From positions 1 to 64,000 of the forward strand of contig CAUYUJ010000122.1 of NCBI GenBank assembly GCA_963575745.1: a stretch of DNA of 64,000 nt, in the 5' to 3' direction. The DNA is from Prorocentrum cordatum (Eukaryota). The notes beneath the pieces are model-generated. The model saw only the letters and a list, made by a program, of their open reading frames with translations. It was not told the DNA's origin and made no database searches. Made by a program: the position numbers and the translations under genes. This document shows, piece by piece, positions 6,807-62,200 of this stretch; the first letter of the stretch is position 1, and each line of letters begins with the position of its first letter.

Positions 6807-7287
6807 CTGAGCGACGAGGAGTCCTCCTCCTCCTCCTCCTCCTCCTCCTCCTCCTCCTCCTCCTCCTCCTCTCCTCCTCCTCTCCTCCTTCCTCCTCCTC
6901 CTCTCCTCCCTCCGCTCCTCCTCCTCCTCCTCCTCCCCTCCTCCTCCTCCTCCACCTCCTCCTCCCCTCCTCCTCCTCCACTCTCCTCCTCCCTCCTCCT
7001 CCTCCCTCCTCCTCCTCCTCCTCCTCCCTCCTCCTCCTCCTCCTCCTCCTCCTCCTCCTCCTCCTCCTCCTCCTCCTCCTCCTCCTCTCCTCCTCCTCCT
7101 CCTCCTCCTCCTCCTCACGGCGGACCTCGCGCGAGATGACGCGGCGGCCTCGCGCTGCGGCTCACGCGGGCCGCCAGCGCGGCACGCCACATCTGGAACG
7201 AGGGCGCTCGCGCGCGGCCTTGCGCGGGCAGCTCACGCGCCAGCGTCGGTGAAGACGAAGACGCACCCGTTTTCCATCGTCGCTCAC

Positions 7288-7470
7288 CTGGTCGTTCCAG
7301 GAGCCGTACGTCAGGATCTTGTCCAGGACCCCGCACGCGGAGACGCCGTGGACGAAGAGCGCGGGGTTCTGCCGGACCACGCCAGCGATGTGCCTCCGCT
7401 GCGCGTCGTCCCCGTGCTCCAACAGGTGCTGGATCACAAAGTTTCCGTACTGGTCGCCGCTCAGGGTCTC
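7288..7470 (-). CDS. Pumilio/PUF protein exon
   Basis: ETLSGDQYGNFVIQHLLEHGDDAQRRHIAGVVRQNPALFVHGVSACGVLDKILTYGSWNDQ, with a canonical 'DQYGNFVIQHLLEHG' motif. AAAG| acceptor, CAG|GTGAG donor. Confidence 0.92.
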
Positions 7471-7697
7471 CTTTGGAGTCCCGAAACGGTGCGGTGACGG
7501 ACCGTGCGGTGACCTCGAAATCCCCCAAGACCTCACCGCACGGTCCGTCACTGCACGGTCTTGGGACCCCAGAGGCCCTGGTCGCCCGAGACGTCCTCGG
7601 AGAACGCCCCCGAGTCCCAAAACCGTGCGGTGACCCCGAATCCCCACCGACGCACCACATGGTGTGGTCACCACCCCGTTTGGTGGCCCCTGGTCTC
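7471..7697 (-). mobile_element. Introner-like dispersed repeat 'family A' forming an entire PUF intron
   Basis: Aligns end-to-end with 56056-56244 plus 56526-56560. Direct repeat GGAGACC at both junctions. Confidence 0.8.
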
Positions 7698-7815
7698 CAC
7701 GTTACCGAGGATGTCCCGGAGCGCGCACTCGAGACGGCCCCTGGGGAAGTGCTCAATCAGGCGCTCGAGGACCCTGCACCCGTAGGGCTGCCGTGCCAGG
7801 TCCGCTGCACTCCAC
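7698..7815 (-). CDS. Pumilio/PUF protein exon (not in the ORF track frame)
   Basis: WSAADLARQPYGCRVLERLIEHFPRGRLECALRDILGNV, with a PUF 'YGCRVLERLIEH' motif. CAG| acceptor matches phase 2 of the previous exon. Donor is GA (or GT three nt earlier). Confidence 0.9.
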
Positions 7816-11484: not shown

Positions 11485-13173
11485 CTACGACGGCGGCGAC
11501 GACTGTGGCACGTCAGAAATCGGCCTGAGAGGCCGCCTCGGATGTATACGATCCCTACAACAAGTTCTCTACGAAAGGCAACAATTTTGAGGCTGCCGTG
11601 CAAGGGGAATGCACGATCCCCTCGGCTGCGCCCGCGACGACCCCCAGGCGCGCGAGATTAAAAAAAGATGTCGCGCCCCGCGGGGTCTACTCATCAGCCC
11701 TACGGAGAGGGGGAGCCATCATGTATTCATCACAAGCTGACGTCAAACTGAAGTGCACCATACTTGGTGTAAACTCTGAGCGGCAACGGCGCGGCCACGG
11801 GCGGCAAAGTGACGAAATTTCGCCAGACCCACCCAGCGCAGGGGGTGGCCACGAGGCGGCCTTGGGCGGCAACGTGGCGAAACCTCGCCGGACCCATCCT
11901 GCGTACGAGGCGGCAGCCACGACGCGGCCACGGGCGGCCCCTCGCAGGACCCACCCACCGCACAGGGCGGCCGCGAGGCGGCAGCGGGCGGCAGCGTGGC
12001 GAAACCTCGCCAGGCGCTCCCAGCGCATGCGCTCTGAGAAGAAAGAACGCATCAGCATAAACTTGCGGAGGTCCGCGCGGATTCACGAGATCGGCGCTGG
12101 ATGCCTTCTGGCCGTGCCCCCAGCGCCGCCCCCGGCGCGCTCCGCGCGCCCAGGAGAGAGAGCCCATCGCCGATCCAAGAAATCCGCGACGACCTCCGAA
12201 AGCCTATAGTGCAGCAGCAAGGTCCGATCGCGCGCGGATGGTCGCGCGCGCCCCGCAAGTGGAGACGGCACTGAAAAATCATGCAACTGTACACACCCCT
12301 CCAAGAACGAACTTGCCGGCAAGCTACTAGTTATGTTCGAAAGTTCCCAAACCAAAGACCCGAGTGCCATGGAGTACTTTTGAGAATGACGTAGCATGCT
12401 TGTGCTGCCTGTTCTTTTCTTCGAGCTGTGGTCCTGTCAAAGCCCCTCCTCCTCCTCCTCCTCCTCCTCCGCCTTTTCCCCCTTTTCCTCCTCCTCCTCC
12501 TCCTCCTCCTCCTCCTCCTCCTCCTCCTCCTCCTCCTCCTCCTCCTCCTCCTCCTCCTCCTCCTCCTACTCCCTCCTATCGGACGGGAAGCACTTGAGAC
12601 CACGGCCCCGCCGCACAGAGCTGCTCCACAGTCGGCGCCCCTCCTAGGGCCCTCCTAGGGCCCGACCCAAATTTGGCCGTCGCGACGAGAAGCCTCCAGA
12701 AAACCCCCCAAAAAAATACGGAATACGGTCGAAACGCTGTCACAGGCAACCCTGAATCAGGAACGAGGCCCCTCTTTCCACAGGGTAAACTTCGATTCTC
12801 CTGAGAAAAACCAAGAAAACCCTTAGAAAAACAATAAAGCCATTGAGGAACACTGAGCCCCTCCCCGACGAAAGGGGTTCCTCCTTCAGCGGCCCGACTT
12901 TAGCGCCCAAGAAGAACCACCGTCTGTCTCAACCAGCCCTCTTCCGATCCTCCACAGAGAGGGAGCGACGAGGGGGCACCAGCTCGAGGGAGGAAACGTC
13001 GACCTGGAATCGGCGATGCATCACCGAAGGATCGGCGGCAGGCTCTTCGATGGCGGACACGCGCCTTCCTGGGCGGCGTGCACCAGGAGGCCTCTATCGA
13101 AGGTGGGTGGGCGATTGGGGGTCGATGCATTTCCCACTAAGCCCCTCCCCCCCGAAGGTTGCCCCTGATTCAC

Positions 13174-37932: not shown

Positions 37933-38115
37933 ACTCTGGGGGTGGACAGAACCCCCAACAGTGACACGTCGATTAGTGAACTGTCCGTTTTCGGTTCTCG
38001 AGAGGGCGCCGCGGCCGCTATCTTCCAGGCTGGCGCCCGCCAGGTTTGGGCCCGAGGTCGTTTTCACGAAACCACGTTTTACTGAAGGGAGGTCTGTCCA
38101 TCCCCGACTCTGGGG
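37933..38115. mobile_element. Dispersed repeat 'family B' with short terminal inverted repeats and a 9-bp direct repeat
   Basis: Body ACACGTCGATTA...GAGAGGGCG...GTTTTCACGAA is shared with 56908-57058. TGGACAGA/TCTGTCCA inverted ends; ACTCTGGGG at 37933 and 38107. Confidence 0.7.
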
Positions 38116-39347: not shown

Positions 39348-41442
39348 TCGGGCATGTCCCTCTACAGGAGGAAAACCCCAAATCGTCAAGAATGGTCTCG
39401 GGACGACTTTTTCAAGGACTGCTTTTTTTGTCTATGTTTGAGTCTGTTTCGAGTATTCTTGATTTTTCGCCCAACCTCCGCCTGTAGGGGGACATGCCCG
39501 ACCGAAGGGCAGAAGGCGTCGGCGGCCTGCTTGCAGAGCTCGGGCCGGACGAAAGGGGCGGATAGGGAAAGGGGGTGTTACGAAATCTGCTGCTTGCAGC
39601 TGGTTTCGGCCCCGCCGCCGGGCCCATCCCTCGATACATGGGCGCCTCCCGGCGCCGGGAGGCGCCGGGAAAATCAGCTATAGGTGAGCTGATTCTCACC
39701 CCCCGCCTTTGCTATCCCCCCCTTTCGCCTGGCCCGAAGAGAGCGGTGGCGCGCGCTGCCTCGAGGCGCACAGCGCCCTGCGGGGGGGCCCTCCCAGGGG
39801 GGGCCTCGGGGCTGCGAGGGTGCGCCGGGGACTCGCACCTCCGACGCCGTGACTTTTTCACAAGGAGGAGGAGGAGGAGGAGGAGGAGGAGGAGGAGGAG
39901 GAGGAGGAGGAGGAGGAGGAGGAGGAGGAGGAGGAGGAGGAGGAGGAGGTTTTTTGTCCTTGTCGGCCTCTCGGGGCCCTCGCCGGGCCTCGGGACCGTC
40001 AAGAAACAACTCGGGATGAGAAACGGGTCCCGGGGAAGGTGTCGGGAGGTCGGGGGCCCGTGTCTCGAAAAAGTCGAGACGTCGGATGTCTGGGAATGTC
40101 GACCCCCAGAGGTCCAGACCCCTTCCCCGGGGCCGGCTTCTCGTCCCGAGTTGTTTTCTGACGGTTCCGAGGCCCAGTCAGGGTCCCCGCAGGCCGAACA
40201 TAGTGAAAAACGCGTCGCCGTGTCTTTTTCACAGCGCGATGAGGGTCTGGGTATCAGGCCAGCGCGGTCCACATGCGCGTGGGCATCCGCTGTCACGTCG
40301 GGACCGTCCGCGGAGGCGAGAGAGAGAGCGGTGCTCACCCGGGTCTGAGGCCTTGCTGTGGCCAGGGACCTGGCTGGAGTCGGCGCCCCCCTCCCCCAAC
40401 CAAATCAATTACCGACCACGGCATCCCCCCAAACCCAAGTCGACCTGAGTTTTCGGGCCGAATGTTCGGCCCATCCTCCCCTCGGACCACGGCATCCCCT
40501 CCTCCTCCTCCTCCTCCTCCTCCTCCTCCTCCTCCTCCTCCTCCTCCTCCGCATCAAGTTGACCCCGGGAAAACCGGCGTCCGCCCAGGTGAGCTGCTGC
40601 TGGGTGCCGCGCCGCTGTCCGGCGAGCAGCTATGTGGCTTCCTGCGCGGCTGCGAGGACAGGGGCGGATGGGGAAACGCCCCCGATGGCTTACCGAGAGC
40701 ACGAGGGCGATGAGCAACACCAGCTTTGGAAGGGTGCCGTTTTCTTCGTGTTTGGGCTCTCCGCCTTGGAGTGTCGTTCGCTTTGGGTGCCTCCATGCGA
40801 GAAGTCGGGCCTCTCCCCCTACAGGGGGATTTTCGACGAAAAATCAAAAAACACCGCAAACATACCCCCAAACATTAAAACAGATTCGACAGATAGGCCC
40901 CAGACTATTTTTTGACTGTTCTTGGGGTCTTTTTTTATTTTTTTTGTTTTTCGTCGAACATCCCCCTGCAGGGGGACACGCCCGACTGGGGCCTACGGCG
41001 AAGGAGCTCATGTTCTCCTCCTCCTCCTCCTCCTCCTCCGTCGCCCTCCTCCTCCTCCCCCTCCTGCTCCTCCACCTCCTTCTTCCTCCTCCTCCTCCTC
41101 CTCCTCCTCCTTGACCCACGTTCTCGTGGCAATGCTTCGACCGTGGCCAGGGGCAGGCTCACGCACCGCTCGGTGCGTGCTCGTGGCTCGTCCAGGACGC
41201 CCCGTGGCTCTGCGCCTCCCCGTTCCCTGGCAGGGAGATCGTCCCCAGGATTACGTCGGGCCTGTCCCCCTACAGGGGGATGTTCGACGAAATATAAGAC
41301 ATGCCCCCAAAATGATCCAAAAATGCTGCAAAAATAGTCCGGGGACTGTTTTGTTGACTATTTGTTGATCTTTTTGGTGTATTTTTTGTTTGGTATTTTT
41401 AATTTTTCGTCGAAGATCCCCCTGTAGGGGGACACGCCCGAC
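39348..41442. mobile_element. Three copies of MITE 'family C' (39348-39502, 40804-40986, 41255-41442)
   Basis: Each has ~22-bp terminal inverted repeats of the form GTCGGGCNTGTCCCCCTACAGG...CCTGTAGGGGGACAYGCCCGAC around variable AT-rich interiors. A further copy is at 57114-57425 and a half copy near 29780. Confidence 0.85.
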
Positions 41443-49165: not shown

Positions 49166-49630
49166 GAGGAGGAGGATGAGGAGGATGAGGAGGAGAAGAA
49201 GAGGAAGGAGGAGTAGGAGGCGTCCAAGTAATAACAATAACCCCATCTTAGGATATGGGAAGTATGGGAGATTGCATGACGTTCCATGGCGACTGGGTAT
49301 ATGATGGCCGTGTGCAATCTGATCGGCAGGAAATCGGAATGGCTCCAGGTGCATCCTTTCCTATTTCAGCTGGGCCTGTTGCATTGGTCAACTGACTGCA
49401 GGCGTCAATGGTGTTGCGCGTCATCCCCTCTGTTCCCCTCCTTCTTCTTCCTCAACGCTGCGCTGTGAAGAAACATATCCGAAGCAATATCGATAGTCAT
49501 TATTATGTGATTGCTTTGTGATGTGTGTGTGTCTGCGCAGGAGTTATGTCCAAATGTTATGGGCTTCAGTTGTCTTAGCGCACACAGGAAGTCGTTCCGT
49601 CCGCTGTGCTGGCGCAGCTACTATTGTAGC

Positions 49631-50653
49631 ATGCCGCGATGGGCACGCTCCGGCGGTGGAACCGGCAGTGCTCGCGCCGACGCTCCGACGAATTGTTTGC
49701 CGCTGTGTCGCGAGGCGGAGGGCGCGATGGGAGGCGATGGACTGGTTAGCGATCTCAGGATCGACCCCGACGGTCTCACGCCGCCTGGGAAGCAGCTGCT
49801 GCCAGGCTTCGTCCACTACCCTGGCGTCCTGTCGCCCGAGCTACAGCAAGCCCTGCTCGACGTGGCTGTGTCGGTGACGTCTAGGGCCCGGGACGAGGGG
49901 GTGAGCGGAGGCTGGCACCGCAAGGACGATAACGGAAGATGGTCTCTGAACGACGGGACCAAGGCGCGGTTTTGGGACAGGATCGACGGCATCTTCCCCA
50001 AAGGCTTCCGGGAGCTCGGCCAGGACCTCGCGAGGCTCTCCGCCAGGGACTTCCCGAGGGATCTGGCTGCGCCAGTGGCAGCCTTCGAGCCGCAAGTGGG
50101 TGCCGTGAACTACTACACTGGGAGGGGCCGCATGGGCTGGCACGCCGACGACTACAACTTCGCGAAGAAGGACCGGCCCATAGTCATGGCCAACCTGGGC
50201 GATGCCGCGGAGTTCGGCTACCGGGCACCGGTGGCCGCCGCGGCGACGGGCGCAGAGCGCTCCGTGCGCCTGGAGTCGGGCGACGTGGTCGTGTTCGGCG
50301 GCGAGGCTCGGGACCTCGTCCACGCTGTGCTCCGGGTGTACGAGGGCACGACGCCCACCAACCTCCGCGGGGGCCCCGGCGGCCCCGGCCCGCTGGTCGG
50401 CCGCGTGTCCGTCACCTGGCGCGACTGTGGCCCAGAGGACGGGCTGACTTTCAACTCGGACGAGCGGCTCGGCCTGACGGTCACCGAGAACACGCTGCCG
50501 CGCTACCTGGCGAAGCGCCGCGGTGGCGGCGGCGGCGGTGGCGGCGGTCGGGCCAGGTCCGCCGCATGCTGGGGCTGCGGGGGCGCCGTCGAGTCCAGCG
50601 GACGGGCTGGCCAGGGGTATTGTCAGGCATGCTGGGATTCTTGGCGGAGATGA
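49631..50653 (+). CDS. AlkB-family 2OG-Fe(II) dioxygenase (AlkB/ALKBH1-like) with a C-terminal CxxC-x12-CxxC motif; intronless
   Basis: VNYY...MGWHAD (HxD), PIVMANLG, LESGDVVVFGG.AR...HAV (distal His) and RVSVTWR (RxxxxxR). Start is ATG 49631 or 49727. Confidence 0.92.
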   Translation: MPRWARSGGGTGSARADAPTNCLPLCREAEGAMGGDGLVSDLRIDPDGLTPPGKQLLPGFVHYPGVLSPELQQALLDVAVSVTSRARDEGVSGGWHRKDDNGRWSLNDGTKARFWDRIDGIFPKGFRELGQDLARLSARDFPRDLAAPVAAFEPQVGAVNYYTGRGRMGWHADDYNFAKKDRPIVMANLGDAAEFGYRAPVAAAATGAERSVRLESGDVVVFGGEARDLVHAVLRVYEGTTPTNLRGGPGGPGPLVGRVSVTWRDCGPEDGLTFNSDERLGLTVTENTLPRYLAKRRGGGGGGGGGRARSAACWGCGGAVESSGRAGQGYCQACWDSWRR

Positions 50654-52488: not shown

Positions 52489-55184
52489 AACGACGACGAC
52501 GACGACAGTGTCTCATACACGCCGAAGGGTTTTTTACGGACGGTCTGGGGACCCGAAGCTGGTCTCCAGAGACCGAAGCTGAGGACAAGACGCCGGGATT
52601 GAGCAAGTCACAGCGTCGGAGGTCTGGATCCAGCGTTCTGGCCAGAATTCCGAAGGGAATCCAGCCGTAGCAAAGAGGAAGCCGCACGAACTCAACAAAG
52701 ACGCAATAAAACGTTTCAGCGCCTCGATGTTGCAATTATCCCCTACAACATCCCAGAGCAAGGTTACCCTTGCAACCGCCTCATGCACCTGTAGGGCTTG
52801 CAGATTCACATTATGGTTCAGTCGGGTATGTCCTTCTAAATGGGGGATATTCAAGAATAGTAAGAAATGGTCTGGTGACGATGTTTCGTGCTCTCTTGAA
52901 ATGTTTGATTTGTTGATTATTTTCAAAATTTGTATTCCAAAATCCGTCTGTAGGAGGACATGCCACCCTAACATTAAATATGGGCGCGGGCGGAAACGTC
53001 AGAGAGCTCTGTCGTTTTAGGGAGGCGTCCCAAGACCTCAGACGCTTGGAATCACACGCTGAATTTCGTTGTGCTGCCGTGTTCGGTGTCTCTTGGGGCT
53101 GTTTCTGGGCCGCGAGGTTGGCCGAAAGGGAGTCAGGACGAACAGCCGCGGCCCGGTGAGAGGGGGGAGTAGATTGTCAAAGAGGCCTGCGCTGGTCCGC
53201 CGATCCCCAGATACAAAGGCGAAGATGTTTGTGTGGCTTCCGGTGCCTTCTATGTGCTGTGCCGCGTTTTGTCGTGCTGCCTGCTTGTCGGTGTTCCTGG
53301 CTTGGCCTCTCTTCCTCCGCGTCTGTTGCGGGGCCTCTTGGGTGCCTCTTGGAGGCCTCGGGGGCGGCCTCGTTCGTGGGTTCTTGTTGGGGCAGTCAGA
53401 GGGCCTTTCATTGGTGCATGATCGGGGCACGTTGAGCGCCCAGGGGCCACGCACGGCCCTGGGGCTGAAGATGGCGGTTCGGCTTCCGTGCCGCGCTCAC
53501 CACGCGAGCGATGTCCTCGAGCGCGAGGTCGTTCGCCCGCAGGCTGCAAACTTGAGGTCGCGCGCACGTGCCATCGCCGCCACCGCGCGAGGCAGCCGCG
53601 CACTCGCGCCAGCCTCCTTCTGCCCTCATCGCTCACCCTGCGCTGCCCACAGCAGTGGCGGAGCAGAAATGATGGGCACATGCTCCACCACCACTACCAC
53701 ATGTAGGACGGGGGAGAAGGGAGGATGAGGAGGTCCTCCTCTTCCTCCTCCTCCTCCTCCTCCTCCGTCCTCCGTCCTCCGTCCTCCGTCCTCCGTCCTC
53801 CTCCTCCTCCTCCTCCTCCTCCTCCTCCTCCTCCTCCTCCTCCTACCTATGGTAGTGGTGGTGGACAACGGGCCCATCAAGGGGCGGGCAGCCCTCTGCC
53901 CCGCGCTCCGGCGACCCCTGCAGCGCGTCGGCTCGAGGGCCGCCGCTGGGGGTCGGCGCCGCCCCTCGACGCGGCGCCTGGCCGTCCCATGCAGGTGTGC
54001 GGCGACGGTGGCCTCTCCAGGCGGGCGCAGGCGTCGAGCCAGCCGTGCCGGGCAGGAGTGCCCCAGTCGGTGGTTCGGCGAGGGGGCCCTGGGGGACGGG
54101 GCGCTTTCGGCTGCCTTCGTGCAGTCTCTTCGTCCCTGGGCGAGGGCTCCCTATGGGGTGGGATCGGCTCCAGCGCTCTGGACGCTCCCTCGGCCTCTCG
54201 CGCCCTCGAGGAGGAGGAGGAGGAGGAGGAGGAGGAGGAGTAGGAGGAGAGGAGGAGGAAGGAGGAGGAGAAGGAGGCGAGGAGGGGGAGGAGGAAAGGG
54301 GGAGGAGGAGGAGGAGGAGGAGGGGAGGAGGAGGAGGAGGAGGAGGAGGAGGAGGAGGAGGAGGAGGCGGAGGAGGCGGGGAGGGGGAGGAGGAGGAGGA
54401 GGAGGAGGAGGAAGAGGAGGAGGAGGAGGAGGAGGAGGAGGAGGAGGAGGAGGAGGAGGAGGAGGCGGGGGAGGGGGAGGGGGAGGGGACGAGGAGGAAG
54501 GGCGTCCAGGTTGAACTTGCAAGGCTTCCGCGCCCGAGGGCCCCATGTCTCAGGGCCCCATCTAGCTGGCATAGGGCGGCATGGTGCGCGGCAGGAAGTG
54601 CTTCTTCAGTGTCTCCACCCGAAGGTCCAGCAGGCCGCCTAAACTCGTCGGCGAGCGAGGGGGGGAAGTGAGAAGGACGAGGCCTTCCCAGAAGGCTCGG
54701 AAGTCCTCCAGCCTTCCAAGAAGTTTCCTAAGCCTTCCGCGACGATACAGAACACCCCTCAGAAGGCATGATGATGGTTTCTGAAAAGTCCAGCCGTTTT
54801 GTGAGAAGGCCATCTTCTTCTCACTTCCCCCCTTCGCTCGCCGTCGTTTTGCGGGACCAGAACAGGCGGGGACGGAGGATCGCGCCGCATCGCTGGTGCA
54901 TTGACGATTCGACGCTATCCTAGGCCAGATTTGTTCAACCCCGACGTCGTCGATGCACCGGCGATGCGGCGCGATCTTCTGACCCCATCCGCTCCACTCC
55001 CATTCCAAATGATCCGACGTCAGGAAGAACATACAACATTATGATAAACACGACAGGATCCGTTGACCACGCTTTTCCGGGGCATCTTTCAGACCAGATC
55101 ACTCTGCGAGGGCCCCAGGGCCCGAAACAGAGGGAAAGCGCCAAGCGTGCAGAAAAAGCGACGCCTGGATCTCTGGGCCTGAAC

Positions 55185-55330: not shown

Positions 55331-55964
55331 CTGACCCCCTTTGTGCGCGCCGCCAATCCCAGACCCCCGACGTCGTGAGTTTTCCGCAACGTCGACCCCC
55401 AGAGGTCAGGACCCCTTCCCTGGTTCTGCGTCGTTTTCTGACGGTCCCGGGGCCCAGGAAGCACCCCAGAGGCCGAAACGGGCGAACGACCTCCCGTCGT
55501 GATTTTTCGCAGCGCGAGGGGGTCTGGGCCTTTTTCGCGCGCCGACCATGAGCGGCCTCCACAAGGGTGCCTCCTGGGGTCGGAGTAGCTGGGGTCGGAG
55601 GGTCGCGCCGCATCGCCGATGCGTCGCCGATGCGGCGCGATGCGCAGCCCGACTCTCTCCATGCCGACGTCGCTGGTGCCTCGCCGACGTCGCCGGGGCA
55701 TCGCCGCTGCATCGGCGATGCGGCGCGAGCCTCCGAAGCCAGGTGCTCGGACCCCACCTGGGAGGCCTCTACAGTCGGGGCCCTGAAGAAGGAACTCTTT
55801 TGGTTGGGGAGGGGCTCCGCGTTCCTTAAGTGTTTCGCAGCTTGCCTCAGGCTTTCCTTATGTTTTCGACAGGAAATCGAAGGTTAACTTATGGAAAAAA
55901 GGGGCCTCGTTCCTTATTTAGGGTTCCTTAGGTCAACGCCCCGGCTGTAGTTTGCGCGCCGCCA

Positions 55965-57525
55965 ATGGGCGGCCTCCGCCAAAGGTGCCTCCTGCTCTCC
56001 CTCCTGGCCCTCGCGGTCCTCAGCGGGCTCCGGCTGGCCCTCGTGGGCGCGCCAGGCCCGGGGGCCCCCGAACGGGGTGGTGGCCACGCCGTGCGGTGAG
56101 TCGGCGGGGATTCGGGGTCACCGCACGGTTTTGGGACTCGGGTCGTTCGCCGAGGACGTCTCGGGCGACTGGGGCACCCGAGGTCCCAAGACCATGCGTT
56201 GACAGACCGTGCGGTGAGGTCTTGGGGGATTTCGAGGTCACCGCCGCGCCCCAAGCTCCTCCTCCTCCTCCTCCCTCCTCCTCCTCCTCCTCCTCCTCCT
56301 CCTCCTCCTCCTCCTCCTCCTCCTCTCCCTCCTCCTCCTCCTCCTCCTCCTCCCTCCTCACTCCTCCTCCTCCTCCTCCTCCTCCTCCTCCTCCTCCTCC
56401 TCCTCTCCTCCTCCTCCTCCTCCTCCTCACTCCTCCTCCTCCTCCTCCTCTCCTCCTCCTCCTCCTCCTCTCCTCCTCTCTTCTCCTTCTCTTCTCCTCC
56501 TCCTCCTCCCCCCCTCCTCCTCGGGGGTCCGTCACCGCGCCGTTGCGGGACCCCAGCCAGGCCGCGCCCCAAGCCCACCGCCGCCCGAGCCCACGGGCGC
56601 GGCGCAGCTGGCCGGGGAGGCGCCCGCGGGCCCCACGGCGCCGGCGGGGGGCCCCGCGGGCGGCCGCCCGGCGCCGCGCGCCCTCGCCCTCGACAGCGAG
56701 CAGGGGCGCGAGGCGTCCCGGCTTCGGGGGTGGACGGACCTCCTACCCGCGCCGCGGATCTCCTCTGCCGCGCCGCGACGGGCAGAGTCTGCACGCTGCC
56801 TGGCTCGCCCCTCTGACGTTCAGCTCGTCCTCGCCCCGCGCCGGACAAGCCGCACACCCGAGCCGAGGTCTGAGACGTTGTCCCGTTGCCCCCCAGAGAT
56901 GTCGGAGGTTGATAGACCTCCTACTAGTACCCTGACACGTCGATTAAGGAATTGGCCGTCTTCGCTTCGCGAGAGGGCGTCGCGGCCGTCCTTTTTGCGG
57001 GTCCGGGTCCGTCGGTTTCGGTCCCAGGCCGTTTTCACGAAGGGGAGGTCTACTAAAGGGAGGTGTGTCCATCGCCGATGGCTCGCCTGGAGGCCAACCA
57101 AAGGAATGTGTCAGTCGGGCCTGTCCCTCTAGCAGGAGGAATACAGTCAAAAACCCTAATCAGGACTCTCAGGGTACCCTTGCGTCCTTGCTCTTCCTTG
57201 CTCTTGCGTCCTTGAGGTTTTCGTCGTCCGCCGCCCCAAAAATCCCAACTTCGGCTTCCAAGGGTCTTGCGTCCTTGCCGCGCGTCCTTATTAGGGTTTT
57301 GACTGCATTCAGAAATAGCAGAAAAATAGTCAGGGGACGAGTTCGTGTTGTAGTTTTGGGCATTATTTGCGTATGTTTCGCGTGTTTTTTCGTCCAGGAT
57401 CCCTCTGTAGGAGGACATGCCCGACCTAAGGCGAGGCGTCCTGGCTCGCCTGGAGGCCCAGCAACGAATGTCCTAAACACCTTTTGTGGTCTGCACGAAG
57501 TGCTTTTGGAGCAGTTCTGGCCGAG
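55965..57525 (+). CDS. N-terminal exons (55965-56055, 56561-56907, 57059-57103, 57431-57525) of a signal-anchored protein
   Basis: MGGLRQRCLLLSLLALAVLSGLRLALVGAP hydrophobic anchor. The frame stays open across GC-AG, GT-AG and GA-AG junctions, giving a Pro/Ala-rich stem. Probably continues into the 58084 ORF. Confidence 0.6.
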
Positions 57526-58083
57526 GCTGTCTCGGTTTAGCACCTCGGATGTATGTTCTAAGATCATTGCTTTTGTTCTTCGAATATGAGGAGGAGGAGG
57601 AGGAGGAGGAGGAGGAGGAGGAGGAGGACGAGGAGGAGGAGGAGGAGGAGGAAAAGGAGGAGGAAAAGGAGGCTTAGGTTCCGAGAACGTCTTGTGGCAG
57701 GCCTGTAGGAATGCTGGGACGGCCGGCCCCTGCTCAACGCCAGCGGAGGCCCGGGAAGCCGCACGAGAGGAGGAACACTTCGGACCTCCGCGGAGGCTGT
57801 GCGCCAGACCCCCTCCCCACAGCTGCGCACCCCTTGCTTCGGTGGTGCCTCCAGCGTCGACGATGCGTCTCGACGTAGAGCCGTGCTTCCCCACGCCGAC
57901 GTCGCCGATGCATCGCCGACGTCGCCGATGCTTCGCCGATGCATCGGCGATGTGGCGCGATCCTCCGACCCCATCTACTCCGACCCCATCTAGGAGGCCT
58001 CTAGTGCCTCCAGTTCGCCGCCCCCGGCGCGGGGTCTATCACTGGCAGGCAGTCGCTCGCGGACGTCTGGAGTTCCGGTTCGT

Positions 58084-59229
58084 GTGTGGCTTCCTGGCCC
58101 TCCGGGCATGGTGGGTATGTCGCTGTGGGCGTCCCCCAGCCGCGACGTGTGCAATCCGAAGGGCCACGACGAAGAACGCCGCCCCCCCTCCGGCTCGAAG
58201 GCGTTCGCCAGGAGGCTGGCTGCATGCAGGGATCCAGTCGATTTCGTCGTCTTTGCCAACCGCACCTTTGACGTCGTGAAGCCGGCGCGCTGCGCACAGA
58301 CCCGAGCGAGTGCAAGCGAAGACCCGATGCGCCTGAGCGTGTTCTGGACGGTGGGCCCAGGGCTCTACTCGGACGAGGTGATTCGCGAGCAACTGGCGCT
58401 GCTGGACTCGTCCGGCCTGGCTGCCAGAGCGCAGGCACTGAGAGTCGGCGCGCACGACTACTACGGGGCCTCGTGGCAGGACGACGTCGGCCGAGATCTG
58501 CGGCAGAACGCCAGCAGGGCTTACCCGTGGTCTCCCAAGCTCCAGGCCATCAGGCTCGGCTCTGCTTCGGAGGCATGGTGGAGCCAACAGGAGAAGTTCT
58601 TCGAGTTTTATACGCTGGAGGGGCTCTGGTCGCACTGTCAGCAGGCTCGGCAGCCTGACAAGGAGGCTGTGCTGTACATTCACACCAAAGGCAGCACCAA
58701 CGGTAAATCTGCGTGGCGGCACATCATGTCGCATTTCACCGTCCAGCATTTCCAGGATTGCGTCGACCAGCTCCAGTGCGGCGCTAGCACATGTGGATCA
58801 AACTTAGCGAACCCTCTTGGCAAGGCAAAGTGGAACTTCCCACACTACAGCGGCAACTTCTTTTGGGCGCGGTGCGACTACATTCGTTTGCTTCCCAATC
58901 CGCAGCCGAAAAGCAGTGATTTGAGCTTAGCAGGTGGCGGTTGCCCCTATGGGGACCCACCCACTGGACGATACTTGGCTGAATGGTGGCTCATGGGGAG
59001 CAACAGAGACTATACCCAAACTCGTGTCTACAAGAACTGCTGGGGATCTCAGTCCTCGGTGCGGTTCTGCAGAGATGCGCCTTTCAAGGATGTCTGGGCA
59101 TCAGGAAGTCAAACGTGCAATCTCGGACGGAACACTCAGATGGCTCCGTGGGCTTCCCCTTGCTTGGGAGAAGATGGAGTGGTGGAGGGGGGGAAGAGGT
59201 CGAGCTGGAGGAGGAAGAGGGGAGGATGA
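58084..59229 (+). CDS. Large exon encoding an uncharacterised, possibly glycosyltransferase-like domain (YIHTKG ... HYSGNFFW)
   Basis: Non-repetitive 381-aa ORF with FEFYTL..LW, VLYIHTKG, WRHIMSHF, CGSN, HYSGNFFWARCDYIRLLP and RYLAEWW. The function is an inference. Confidence 0.7.
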   Translation: MWLPGPPGMVGMSLWASPSRDVCNPKGHDEERRPPSGSKAFARRLAACRDPVDFVVFANRTFDVVKPARCAQTRASASEDPMRLSVFWTVGPGLYSDEVIREQLALLDSSGLAARAQALRVGAHDYYGASWQDDVGRDLRQNASRAYPWSPKLQAIRLGSASEAWWSQQEKFFEFYTLEGLWSHCQQARQPDKEAVLYIHTKGSTNGKSAWRHIMSHFTVQHFQDCVDQLQCGASTCGSNLANPLGKAKWNFPHYSGNFFWARCDYIRLLPNPQPKSSDLSLAGGGCPYGDPPTGRYLAEWWLMGSNRDYTQTRVYKNCWGSQSSVRFCRDAPFKDVWASGSQTCNLGRNTQMAPWASPCLGEDGVVEGGKRSSWRRKRGG

Positions 59230-62200
59230 TCGGACAGTGCAGGGCGGAGGGGGGAAGATGCACTCTTAGAGTACTTAGGCTGCTTCCCTTACGTGGCCCA
59301 TACTCTGGCTTTGTGGACTGTCCTCAGGACGTTCCACGTTGTGCTGCATCGAGCTGAAGAAGGACCCCTTCATGACCGTGAGTGCATGGCGCCATCCAGA
59401 TTCCGATATGTGAGTGAAGTGGCGCAGGAGGTCAGATATTGTGATCGCCGAGTTCGTCGGCCGTGCACGCCATCTTCAGCCGCTTGTTCACCCGCCAGCC
59501 ACGGACAGGTCAACGTACGACGGTGGGCTGTTCGTTTCAGTGTCTCTCAGCCGGAAGCCGTCGACATTCCGTAGTGCCCCACGAGTGCATCCATGCTTCA
59601 CCTACGCGTAGATGTGTTTCGTGTGCCAATCCAGGCCGCACATGCACGATTACTATTCGTGCGGCCGCCCAGCAACGCCGATATCATACCAATGGGAACG
59701 ATGGGAAGTTGGTCATGCCAAGTCTGATGCGTTGCGTGGGCCAGCAGTGCCTGAGGTGTTCCTTCGTAGGTGAGAGGCGCGCGTCACGAGGCAGAGAAGC
59801 TCCCTCTCATGGCACAAGTGGAATCATGCCTCCTCGTTCCATCTTGCCCTTCTCATCCCCCAGCTTCCTACGTGGCGGTGGGCGCATTGTCCTGCTTCCT
59901 CATTGCCCCCGTCGCCCATTCCCTCGCGATGCGACCGGCACGATCCCACGCAGACTCCTTACCGCGAGAGATGTTCTGGGTAACAGCACGTGCCTGCGAA
60001 GCTCCTCAGCCCCAGCGGTTTCGATCGCAGCTTTCCGTTTAGCCTATCTGGCACGGATCAGCAAATCAATCTTTCTGGCCAAAATGGATTGAACCGCTGT
60101 TCACTGTTCGAGGTCCAGAAATCCAGCTGCCTGCGGCAATTCCCGCCACTGAGCCCAGCACTCGGGGTGGCGATTGGCCAAGAAGAGCACAAGAAGCCGT
60201 AACGTGTGACACCTCGTGCCACGAGGCTGTGTGTGTGGGGGGGGGGCGGTAGACTGTGGTACGCTCTTCCACGTTGTGTCGGGGTGTCTCTCCTCGTGTT
60301 CGTCGTCGTCGTCCTCCCTTCCTCTTCTTCCGTCCTCTCTTGGGGCCTCTTGGGGAATCTGGGGGGCCCTCTGGGCGCATCTTGGGGCTCCTTGGGCTGC
60401 CTTAGAGCGAACTTGGGCAGTCTGTCGCCTTCGAAGTCAGTCTTGGGGTCTTCTGGGCAGCCTTGGGGCCCTCTTGGGACTCTGAAGGGTCGTCTTGGAG
60501 GTCACGTGGGCCTACGTGGGCCCTCTTGGGGAGTCTTGGGGCCGTCTGGAAGGCCGCTTGGGGCATCCTGAGGGCCTCCTTGGGCCATCTTGGGGCCGTC
60601 TTGAAGGCCGCTTGGGACATCCTAAGAGCCTCTTGGGCCGTCTTGGGTTTCTCTGGGACCCCTTGGGCCGCCCTGAGGACGTCTTGGAGGTTTCGTGAGC
60701 CGCCTTGGGCTTACAGAAGTCCGAGAAGGTGAGCACGCGAACATCCGCCAACATCCAACACATCAAGAGTTGTCATGACCTCTGGCTCTGCACGTAGGAC
60801 CCACGAGGGTGATCACCAATGGGTCAGCGCTTAAACCCTCTCCCCCCCCTGCGAGCCGCAGCCCCTGACCCAAGCCGAAGGGAAAACAGGCCGCTGATGG
60901 TCACGCCTGGCCGCCTTCGCGGGCGGGCGCGCGCAAGGCGACGACGCTGCAGTGCAGAGGGGAGGAGGAGGAGGATGAGGAGGAGGAGGAGGAGGAGGCG
61001 GAGGAGGAGGAGGAGGAGGAGGAGGAGAAGGAGGAAGAGTAGGAGGGGGAGGAGAGGAGAGGAAGTAGAGGAGGAGGAGGAGGAGGGGAGGAGGAGGAGG
61101 CGGAGAGGAGGAGGAGGAGGAGGAGAAGGAGGCGGAGGAGGAGGAGGAGGAGGAGGGGGAGAGGAGAGGAGGGAGGAGGAGGAGGAGGAGGAGGAGGGGA
61201 GGAGGAGGAGGAGGAGGGAGGCGGAGGAGGAGGAGGAGGAGGAGAGAGGAGAGGAGGAAGGAGGAGAGAGGAGGAGGAGGAGACGGGGAGACGAAGAGGG
61301 CGCCCGTCAGCGGCAATATCTGTGCCCTAGGCCTCACGCAAAACGCAATTGAATGCACGGTCTCGGAGGAAGAGGGGGAGGACGAGGAGGAGGGAGCAGG
61401 AGAGAACCGGACGACGGAGGAGGTCAGTACGCGGTCGTGGAGTGTGAGCTACCCGACCCCACCGTTGGGCGCACGAGCATTGGCCTGAGGCAAGGAGCGG
61501 GGAAGGAGCGGGGCAGAGAGGGGAGAGAAGAAGAGGAAGTGAAAGAAACGCTACGGGGTCACATCGACGAACGTGACTGCAGAGCACAGAAGGGACAAAG
61601 AGGAGGAGGAGGAGGAGGAGGAGGAGGAGGAGGAGGAAGAGGAGGATGAGAAGGAGGAGGAGCAGGAGGAGCAGGAGGAGGAGGAGGAGGCGGAGGACCA
61701 GTGTAAGCCCCAAGGTCATCAACGATGTTGGCATACACCCTCCCTCCGAGCTCCCTCTTCGCAGGCCCCTACACGGGTTCATTTCCACTGAGGGAACTGC
61801 TTTTTTGGAAGACAACCGATTGAAGATCCGGGAGCATGCCAAAACATTATTCTCGGGATTCCAACGCCACGGATCAATCTGACTGTTGCGTATTCACGAT
61901 CCAGAATTGTGCCAGAACACCATTCTGGGATTTCAACACCGCGAATCAACGTGATTGTTGTACCTTCATAGTGTTGAATCTTTCCAATACGCAAATTCTG
62001 GTACGTTGACCATGGGATTCCGTGACAATCTTGCAATGTTTAAGAAAAATGCGCCGCGCGAAGGCGAGTATCACACTTCGAAAACGAACCGCCCTCAGTC
62101 GGTGAACCCCCTGCAAATTTTGAAAACGAATGTGCGTGGCGCTAAGGCGAGATCCACATCTTGAAAGCGAGCTGAATTCAATCCTTGAAAGTCTAGCACT

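Follow-up and report, generated by a model that had tools for sequence, protein, structure and literature searches.

We found that short mobile-element relics are piled up upstream of a gene in a 64,000-nucleotide (nt) stretch of the genome of Prorocentrum cordatum, a red-tide alga (contig CAUYUJ010000122.1 of assembly GCA_963575745.1, positions 1 to 64,000 of the forward strand; hereafter, the window). Five unrelated short inverted-repeat elements (families A, B, C, D, and E) and two trinucleotide arrays lie between 55.5 and 58.0 kb. We favor, with a probability of roughly 0.6, the reading that the 2.5 kb upstream of this PF27674-type gene constitute a dump of at least five unrelated non-autonomous DNA transposons, not an intron chain. 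In the initial annotation of this region, repeats had been interpreted as the introns of one gene running from an ATG at 55965 to a stop at approximately 59.3 kb, with five introns that were each a different mobile family. Repeats were detected by dust-filtered self-BLAST of 55500-59500 against the window followed by pairwise alignments, arrays were located with Tandem Repeats Finder (TRF), and all repeat counts refer to the 64-kb window. Features are on the plus strand unless stated otherwise. The RNA data comprised three runs in the form of contigs (X13, X1, and X5) and one thin run of raw reads (X19).

Family A is present in two copies in the window, with 56058-56244 aligning to 7693-7506 on the minus strand at 88% identity over 188 nt, and the first intron of the initial annotation was thereby verified as a repeat. 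When the four termini of the two copies were aligned, 22 of 42 columns were invariant, indicating inverted ends. Copy 1 (element, 56059-56555) makes up a GC..AG intron at 56056-56560 and is bordered on each side by GCCAGGCC, an exact 8-nt duplication (56051-56058 and 56556-56563), with the splice cut inside the duplication (GCCAG|GCC). Random placement gave an exact 8-nt duplication abutting in this manner 987 times in 200,000, with microsatellites accounting for most of the cases. A (CTC)89 array located by TRF (56256-56522) sits within copy 1 and enlarges it, and copy 2 has no such array. The other array, (GAG)28 at 57588-57672, confirms the GAG tract of the initial annotation. Copy 2 corresponds to an annotated GA..AG intron (7471-7697, minus strand) of a conserved Pumilio gene 48 kb away; it is flanked by the 7-nt GGAGACC at 7698-7692 and 7471-7465 and reads G|GAGACC...AAAG|GAGACC. 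The public Pumilio protein encoded on the same contig (P0051) spans copy 2 as ...RDILGNV|ETLSGDQYGNFVIQHLLEHG... (ILGNV|ETLSG), and its relatives P0052 and P0053, obtained from other sources, are uninterrupted at this position, where the flank is a PUF repeat. The two window copies are oriented alike with respect to transcription. Additionally, the summed depth of X13 contigs was 128-168 over the family A element and 2.7-3.7 on its flanks, which implies that further copies with at least 95% identity exist.

These features suggest that family A is an introner, i.e., an intron-making transposon, with splice sites supplied by the duplicated target. With its inverted ends and a 7-8-nt target duplication giving both donor and acceptor, it is a textbook introner example in P. 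cordatum. Since the splice sites come from the duplicated target, the two copies differ in their donors (GC in copy 1 and GA in copy 2). The insertion of copy 1 would have duplicated 8 nt of the target, and the spliceosome would then take the GC in the left target copy as the donor and the AG in the right copy as the acceptor, so that the pre-insertion sequence is restored. In X13, an RNA joint was found exactly at this intron (56050>56556, 505 letters skipped, 8 ambiguous letters; one contig, depth 3.7). As the cut falls within the duplication, transcription of an empty site would yield the identical sequence; the joint is observed, and we infer from it that copy 1 is removed by splicing. The earlier proposal that a duplicated-target insertion becomes an intron thus stands for family A, for which we have the RNA joint and the annotated Pumilio intron, and falls as a chain of five elements in one gene, given that an RNA joint was found for one of the five (56056-56560).

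The RNA contigs from the upstream region were short and shallow. Record 9 of X13 (226 nt, depth 3.7) matched 55982-56050 and then 56556-56589, and record 2 of X1 (280 nt, depth 7.3) matched 55982-56056. Both were free of other letters over the 69-75 nt of this matching part, and both carried 123-205 further letters that do not resemble the adjoining upstream part of the window. Since their match to the genome begins at 55982, the ATG at 55965, proposed earlier as the start of the gene, is absent from them. This ATG and the break point are both held by a 43-nt segment (55953-55995) that was identified by alignment as a duplicate of 55535-55577. The exon most likely starts at the acceptor AAAG|G (55984/55985), which gives an exon piece at 55985-56055, equivalent to exon 1 of the initial annotation without its ATG. 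The following GC-rich segment, 56561-56907 (the former exon 2), is weakly transcribed and at most putatively coding; X13 covers 56556-56589 and, with record 11 at a depth of 2.7, 56660-56825. Overall, the upstream pieces had depths of 2.7-7.3, compared with 16-20 for the downstream gene. These data are consistent with a separate upstream transcript of several-fold lower depth, which would consist of 55985-56055 followed by 56561 to at least 56825 and from which the family A element would be precisely removed. Its preceding exon, seen as the break at 55982, would lie upstream of 55400 or at another locus.

For the proposed introns 2-5, no RNA joint was found in the four runs, in which this weak transcript is thinly covered; in particular, none was found at 56908/57058, at 57104/57430, or around 57845-58013, where coverage is too thin to prove absence. 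Three other joints (55633>57430, 57078>57955, and 57451>57712) were rejected as local splicing and are read as other copies of the repeats. Their sides were 21-22 nt, and their depths (4.9-6.6 in X13, and 43.9 in X1 for 57451>57712) equaled or exceeded that of the weak local transcript.

In contrast to the upstream pieces, the downstream gene was well covered. The long open reading frame (ORF) at 58.1-59.2 kb is 100% identical to P0002, a 336-amino-acid 'unnamed protein product' of P. cordatum encoded on a 117,958-bp contig, which maps to 58108-59094 plus an end segment, and the public gene model starts at the ATG at 58108. A precomputed PF27674 label is attached to each of the 46 listed relatives, P0002 among them, and a local Pfam scan of the protein gave no match. 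The first exon (58093-59088) is coding from ATG 58108. The X13 contig (record 14) covers 58093-59086 and 59326-59780 at a depth of 19.8, the X1 contig (record 7) covers 58107-59086 and 59326-59731 at a depth of 16, and the X5 contig starts at 58358 with a depth of 7.2. The joint 59086>59326 (239 letters skipped, 4 ambiguous) was present in all three contig runs and in none of the reads of the thin raw run. It defines an intron of the GA..AG type at 59089-59327. Each junction has AGGA, and a check of this intron found no inverted ends or other transposon hallmarks. The last exon (59328-59794) holds nine codons, a stop at 59355-59357, and a 3' untranslated part, with contigs reaching 59731-59794. 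The spliced C-terminus, FKDV|PRCAASS, is the same as that of P0002. If unspliced at 59089, the ORF would extend for 47 more codons, to 59229. Relatives of the protein end in a different cysteine-rich tail, and the C-terminus of the local copy looks remodelled.

The X13 and X1 contigs of the gene start without extra letters and without an upstream exon. The initial annotation had named a transcript starting at the ORF without the upstream exons as evidence against its model, and this is what was found, as far as the contigs show, with starts at 58093 and 58107. The bin depths of 58046-58192 are fully explained by these two contigs, leaving 58046-58092 uncovered; none of the four runs had any depth in 57458-57604, and depth did not exceed 0.8 in 57752-57898. 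When nine relatives were compared with the window by tblastn, homology was found from 58177 onward, and their N-terminal 60-120 residues matched nothing upstream, which speaks against the earlier link between the upstream exons and the ORF near 58084. No longer annotated isoform was found in the searched ranges of 205-653 and 654-2000 amino acids, and exact-pattern scans of metagenome contigs with the 5' end of the ORF and with exon 1 gave no loci for either. Judging from the contig ends, the mRNA of the gene probably begins at or shortly upstream of 58093 and would be translated from ATG 58108, with one ordinary GA..AG intron at 59089-59327.

Coding signals in the upstream exons were uneven. 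Third-position G+C content was coding-like in the ORF (0.74, compared with 0.51 at position 2) and in exon 1 (0.93, compared with 0.50), weak for exon 2, and without a signal for exons 3 and 4 and for 57994-58107. The frame of the proposed splice model is indeed open, with no stops in 192 codons; however, this is weak evidence, since 10 of 12 exon-by-frame combinations are free of stops anyway. For exon 2 in the proposed frame (115 amino acids), no identical or close protein was found among 1.84 billion representative proteins, and the single weak match was 36% identical. In very GC-rich, repeat-rich dinoflagellate DNA, open frames and AG|G on both sides of a repeat come cheap and do not make an intron, and the locus corrects a tempting over-reading of this kind.

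Several observations weigh against the reading of the upstream region as a transposon dump. The relatives P0003, P0004, P0006, P0007, and P0010 open with hydrophobic, signal-peptide-like N-termini, which the local gene model lacks, and exon 1 of the initial annotation encodes a signal-peptide-like, codon-periodic stretch; together, these fit a missing upstream coding exon. The local gene is either a truncated paralogue or a gene whose first coding exon was not found. The frame upstream of ATG 58108 (RVWLPGPPG...) faintly resembles, by eye, the FLPW region of the homologues, a likeness that was not significant in tblastn. Furthermore, contigs cannot prove the start of a transcript, a rare long isoform would escape the assemblies, and the raw-read run is thin, at approximately 1x over the gene. 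The joint at intron 1 is represented by one contig in one of the four runs, with one side of just 34 nt.

The gene of five introns proposed in the initial annotation would account for some of these observations: the frame is open across three of the proposed junctions, an RNA joint lies exactly at the predicted intron 1, and exon 1 is signal-peptide-like, as in the homologues and unlike the annotated model. Nevertheless, we consider it very unlikely. Its ATG is not in the RNA contigs, which break at 55982; introns 2-5 have no joint in any of the four runs; depth is zero in 57458-57604 and 58046-58092, with the gene contigs ending at 58093 and 58107; and neither homology upstream of 58177 nor a protein match for exon 2 was found in the searches described above. 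The openness of its frame is matched by that of 10 of the 12 exon-by-frame combinations, and the ends of the B and C elements lie off the proposed junctions. Dinoflagellates use polycistronic transcription with trans-splicing, and a less demanding version would make the upstream exons a non-coding leader that is sometimes joined to the exon at 58.1 kb as a minor long isoform, with the main mRNA produced by spliced-leader addition just upstream of 58093. The upstream pieces are on the same strand as the gene (GC..AG reads correctly only on the plus strand) and have about one-fifth of its depth; yet no contig or read joins the two parts, and the same uncovered intervals lie between them, which makes such an isoform unlikely.

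A different doubt concerns the joint 56050>56556, which might reflect not splicing but RNA from an allele or paralogue that was never hit by family A. Upstream of 55982, the same contigs diverge from the window in the manner of a paralogue, the joint occurs in one contig only, and the break falls on GGCCTC..GTGCCTCC, a repeat-type motif present at three places here. We regard such an empty site as rather improbable, however, as the 69-75 nt match without other letters, the window holds no second copy of 55985-56055 or 56561-56907, the depth is as low as for a single-copy locus, and family A copy 2 is publicly annotated as an intron. It is likewise improbable, in our view, that the cluster is an 'intron nursery' in a non-coding, co-transcribed spacer RNA, in which family A is spliced without interrupting conserved coding sequence. 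If this were true, splicing competence would be made by the insertion itself through a duplicated AG|G-type target, independently of the gene; elements tested in this way could later seed introns in coding exons, e.g., in Pumilio; and the long direct repeats of the region (43 nt around D and E, and 17-30 nt around C) would point to a long-duplication insertion or repair route. The transposon dump remains our preferred reading, under which the B, C, D, and E elements of this locus would most likely be simple insertions into DNA that is either transcribed but non-coding or intergenic.

Families B, C, D, and E are short and non-coding, have terminal inverted repeats, and occur in several copies, as is characteristic of miniature inverted-repeat transposable elements (MITEs). 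No consistent target duplication was found in the flanks of the 2-4 copies of each; for family C, TA is possible, being present at four of eight ends. The family B element (56904-57077; two copies in the window) has the inverted ends GGAGGTTGATAGACCTCC ... GGAGGTGTGTCCATCGCC, and 56904-57078 matches 37938-38107 at 128 of 176 positions. The previously noted second copy and 9-bp inverted pair (TAGACCTCC at 56913-56921 and GGAGGTCTA at 57044-57052) were both confirmed. The homology and the inverted end extend 19-20 nt beyond the proposed acceptor at 57058, and the claim that the element ends coincide with the splice junctions consequently does not hold for B. Nor does it hold for family C, a MITE whose inverted ends, of approximately 24 nt, stop short of the proposed donor by 11 nt and of the proposed acceptor by 6 nt. 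For this family, the initial annotation was right about the MITE and about AAGG at both junctions (57101-57104 and 57428-57431) and wrong about where the element ends. AAGG was rejected as the target duplication of family C, being separated from the inverted ends by 10 nt and 3 nt. Complete copies of family C are found at 57115-57424, 39348-39501, 40805-40985, and 41256-41441, together with two lone ends. The first copy contains a nested inverted pair (57139-57166 and 57284-57310) with 17-nt arms that are 88-94% complementary, which suggests an element within an element and would account for its roughly twofold length compared with the other three copies.

Family D, rich in CATCGCCGATG, has three copies in the window: 57854-58003 matches 55621-55771 at 80% identity, with weaker matches at 54868-54995, in agreement with the positions given earlier (approximately 54875-54995 and 55565-55770). 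The full copy (55567-55766) has 59-nt arms (55575-55633 and 55698-55756) that are 85% complementary. The copy at 57845-58003, identified by its match to the full copy, is internally shortened in its 5' half, and loose RNA ends at 58003 come from other copies. The 10-nt GTGCCTCCAG described as a direct repeat was found at 57845-57854 and 58004-58013; it is the element's own 5' end motif, occurring again after the 3' end. Family E, which is absent from the initial annotation, occupies 55767-55949 with the ends CTACAGTCGGGGC ... GCCCCGGCTGTAG. It has two copies in the window, as 55764-55949 matches the reverse complement of approximately 12724-12908 at 136 of 187 positions, and its borders are marked by loose RNA ends at 55766/55770 and 55941/55949. 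The motif GGCCTC-N(2-8)-GTGCCTCC has three occurrences in the window, always in this region and on the plus strand (55554-55574, 55971-55992, and 57996-58011). It resembles a family D 3' end followed by a family D 5' end, and its middle occurrence is the RNA break point.

Long direct repeats were observed around some of these elements, namely 43 nt (36 identical) at 55535-55577 and 55953-55995 around the first copies of D and E, and 17 nt exact (approximately 30 nt imperfect) at 57079-57109 and 57442-57471 around the first copy of C. They could represent local duplications or unusual products of insertion or repair. Long flanking repeats were rejected as a family property, as they were found around only the first copy of C and the joint D and E pair among 13 flanks (12 copies plus the pair taken jointly), with p of approximately 0.1 under a null inflated by microsatellites. 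The summed contig depth over the repeats reached 684-1089 in X13, and the families are therefore abundant in the RNA contigs. Over E, B, and D (55694-55987, 56870-57016, and 57899-58045), the summed X13 depth was 458-1089, compared with 20 for the neighboring gene. In the stranded raw run, the first mate was on the minus strand for nearly all family E reads (6.7-10.6 compared with 0-0.2), and the RNA-borne copies therefore appear to share one orientation.

Roy et al. (10.1101/2020.10.14.339549) described 15 classes of introner-like elements in Polarella glacialis with target duplications of 3-8 nt, in which splice sites are recruited from the duplication, 8-nt classes create introns in several registers, and GA donors are commoner among recently gained introns. 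Family A is likewise short, with inverted ends, a 7-8-nt duplication supplying both splice sites (GCCAG|GCC and G|GAGACC), GC and GA donors, and AG|G acceptors. It differs in coming from another species and another sequence family, and is set beside the Polarella classes by description and with two copies only. For P. cordatum itself, Dougan et al. 2023 (PMC10666404) reported introner elements in 2.4% of all introns, counting introns that carry, no more than 30 nt from their ends, both inverted repeats (8-20 nt) and direct repeats (3-5 nt), and recognized GC and GA donors. That survey was based on patterns and not sorted by families; because the 7-8-nt duplication of family A is longer than the surveyed 3-5 nt, family A may have been missed. 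Diverse introners, with 'tens of introns in a single gene' in Amoebophrya, were reported by Gozashti et al. 2025 (PMC12130899). Amoebophrya thus presents the picture that the initial annotation had proposed, whereas here the RNA shows a joint for one element only and the one-gene reading is unsupported. Farhat et al. 2021 (PMC7789003) reportedly also concerns introners of Amoebophrya.

The general inference of the initial annotation is hence already published and its specific gene model is unsupported; what is new here is a described example of one introner family in P. cordatum. In the available parts of the literature on introners in dinoflagellates or Prorocentrum, no family-level introner catalogue for P. 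cordatum was found, and such a catalogue of the 4.75-Gb genome would show the share of the intron load that was gained in this way. Families B, C, D, and E resemble ordinary MITEs in their length (150-310 nt), inverted ends, several copies, and lack of a Pfam-matching ORF among those scanned. They differ from them in that their copies are very abundant in the RNA contigs, with summed depths in the hundreds.

In a Pfam scan of 110 long ORFs of the window, four matches were obtained at E <= 0.001, of which two were above Pfam's own cut-off. A PUF match above the cut-off lies at 7165-7701 on the minus strand. The Pumilio (PUF) gene encoding P0051 (522 amino acids; 6603-33847, minus strand) spans 27 kb, with introns of several kb full of trinucleotide arrays (13-29 kb region); family A copy 2 forms a short one. 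The second copy of family E (approximately 12724-12908) lies deep within another intron of this gene. An intact 380-codon ORF at 49511-50650 gave the second match above the cut-off, to the 2OG-Fe(II) oxygenase superfamily (PF13532, E 1.5e-22), and is the nearest clearly coding stretch upstream on the same strand.

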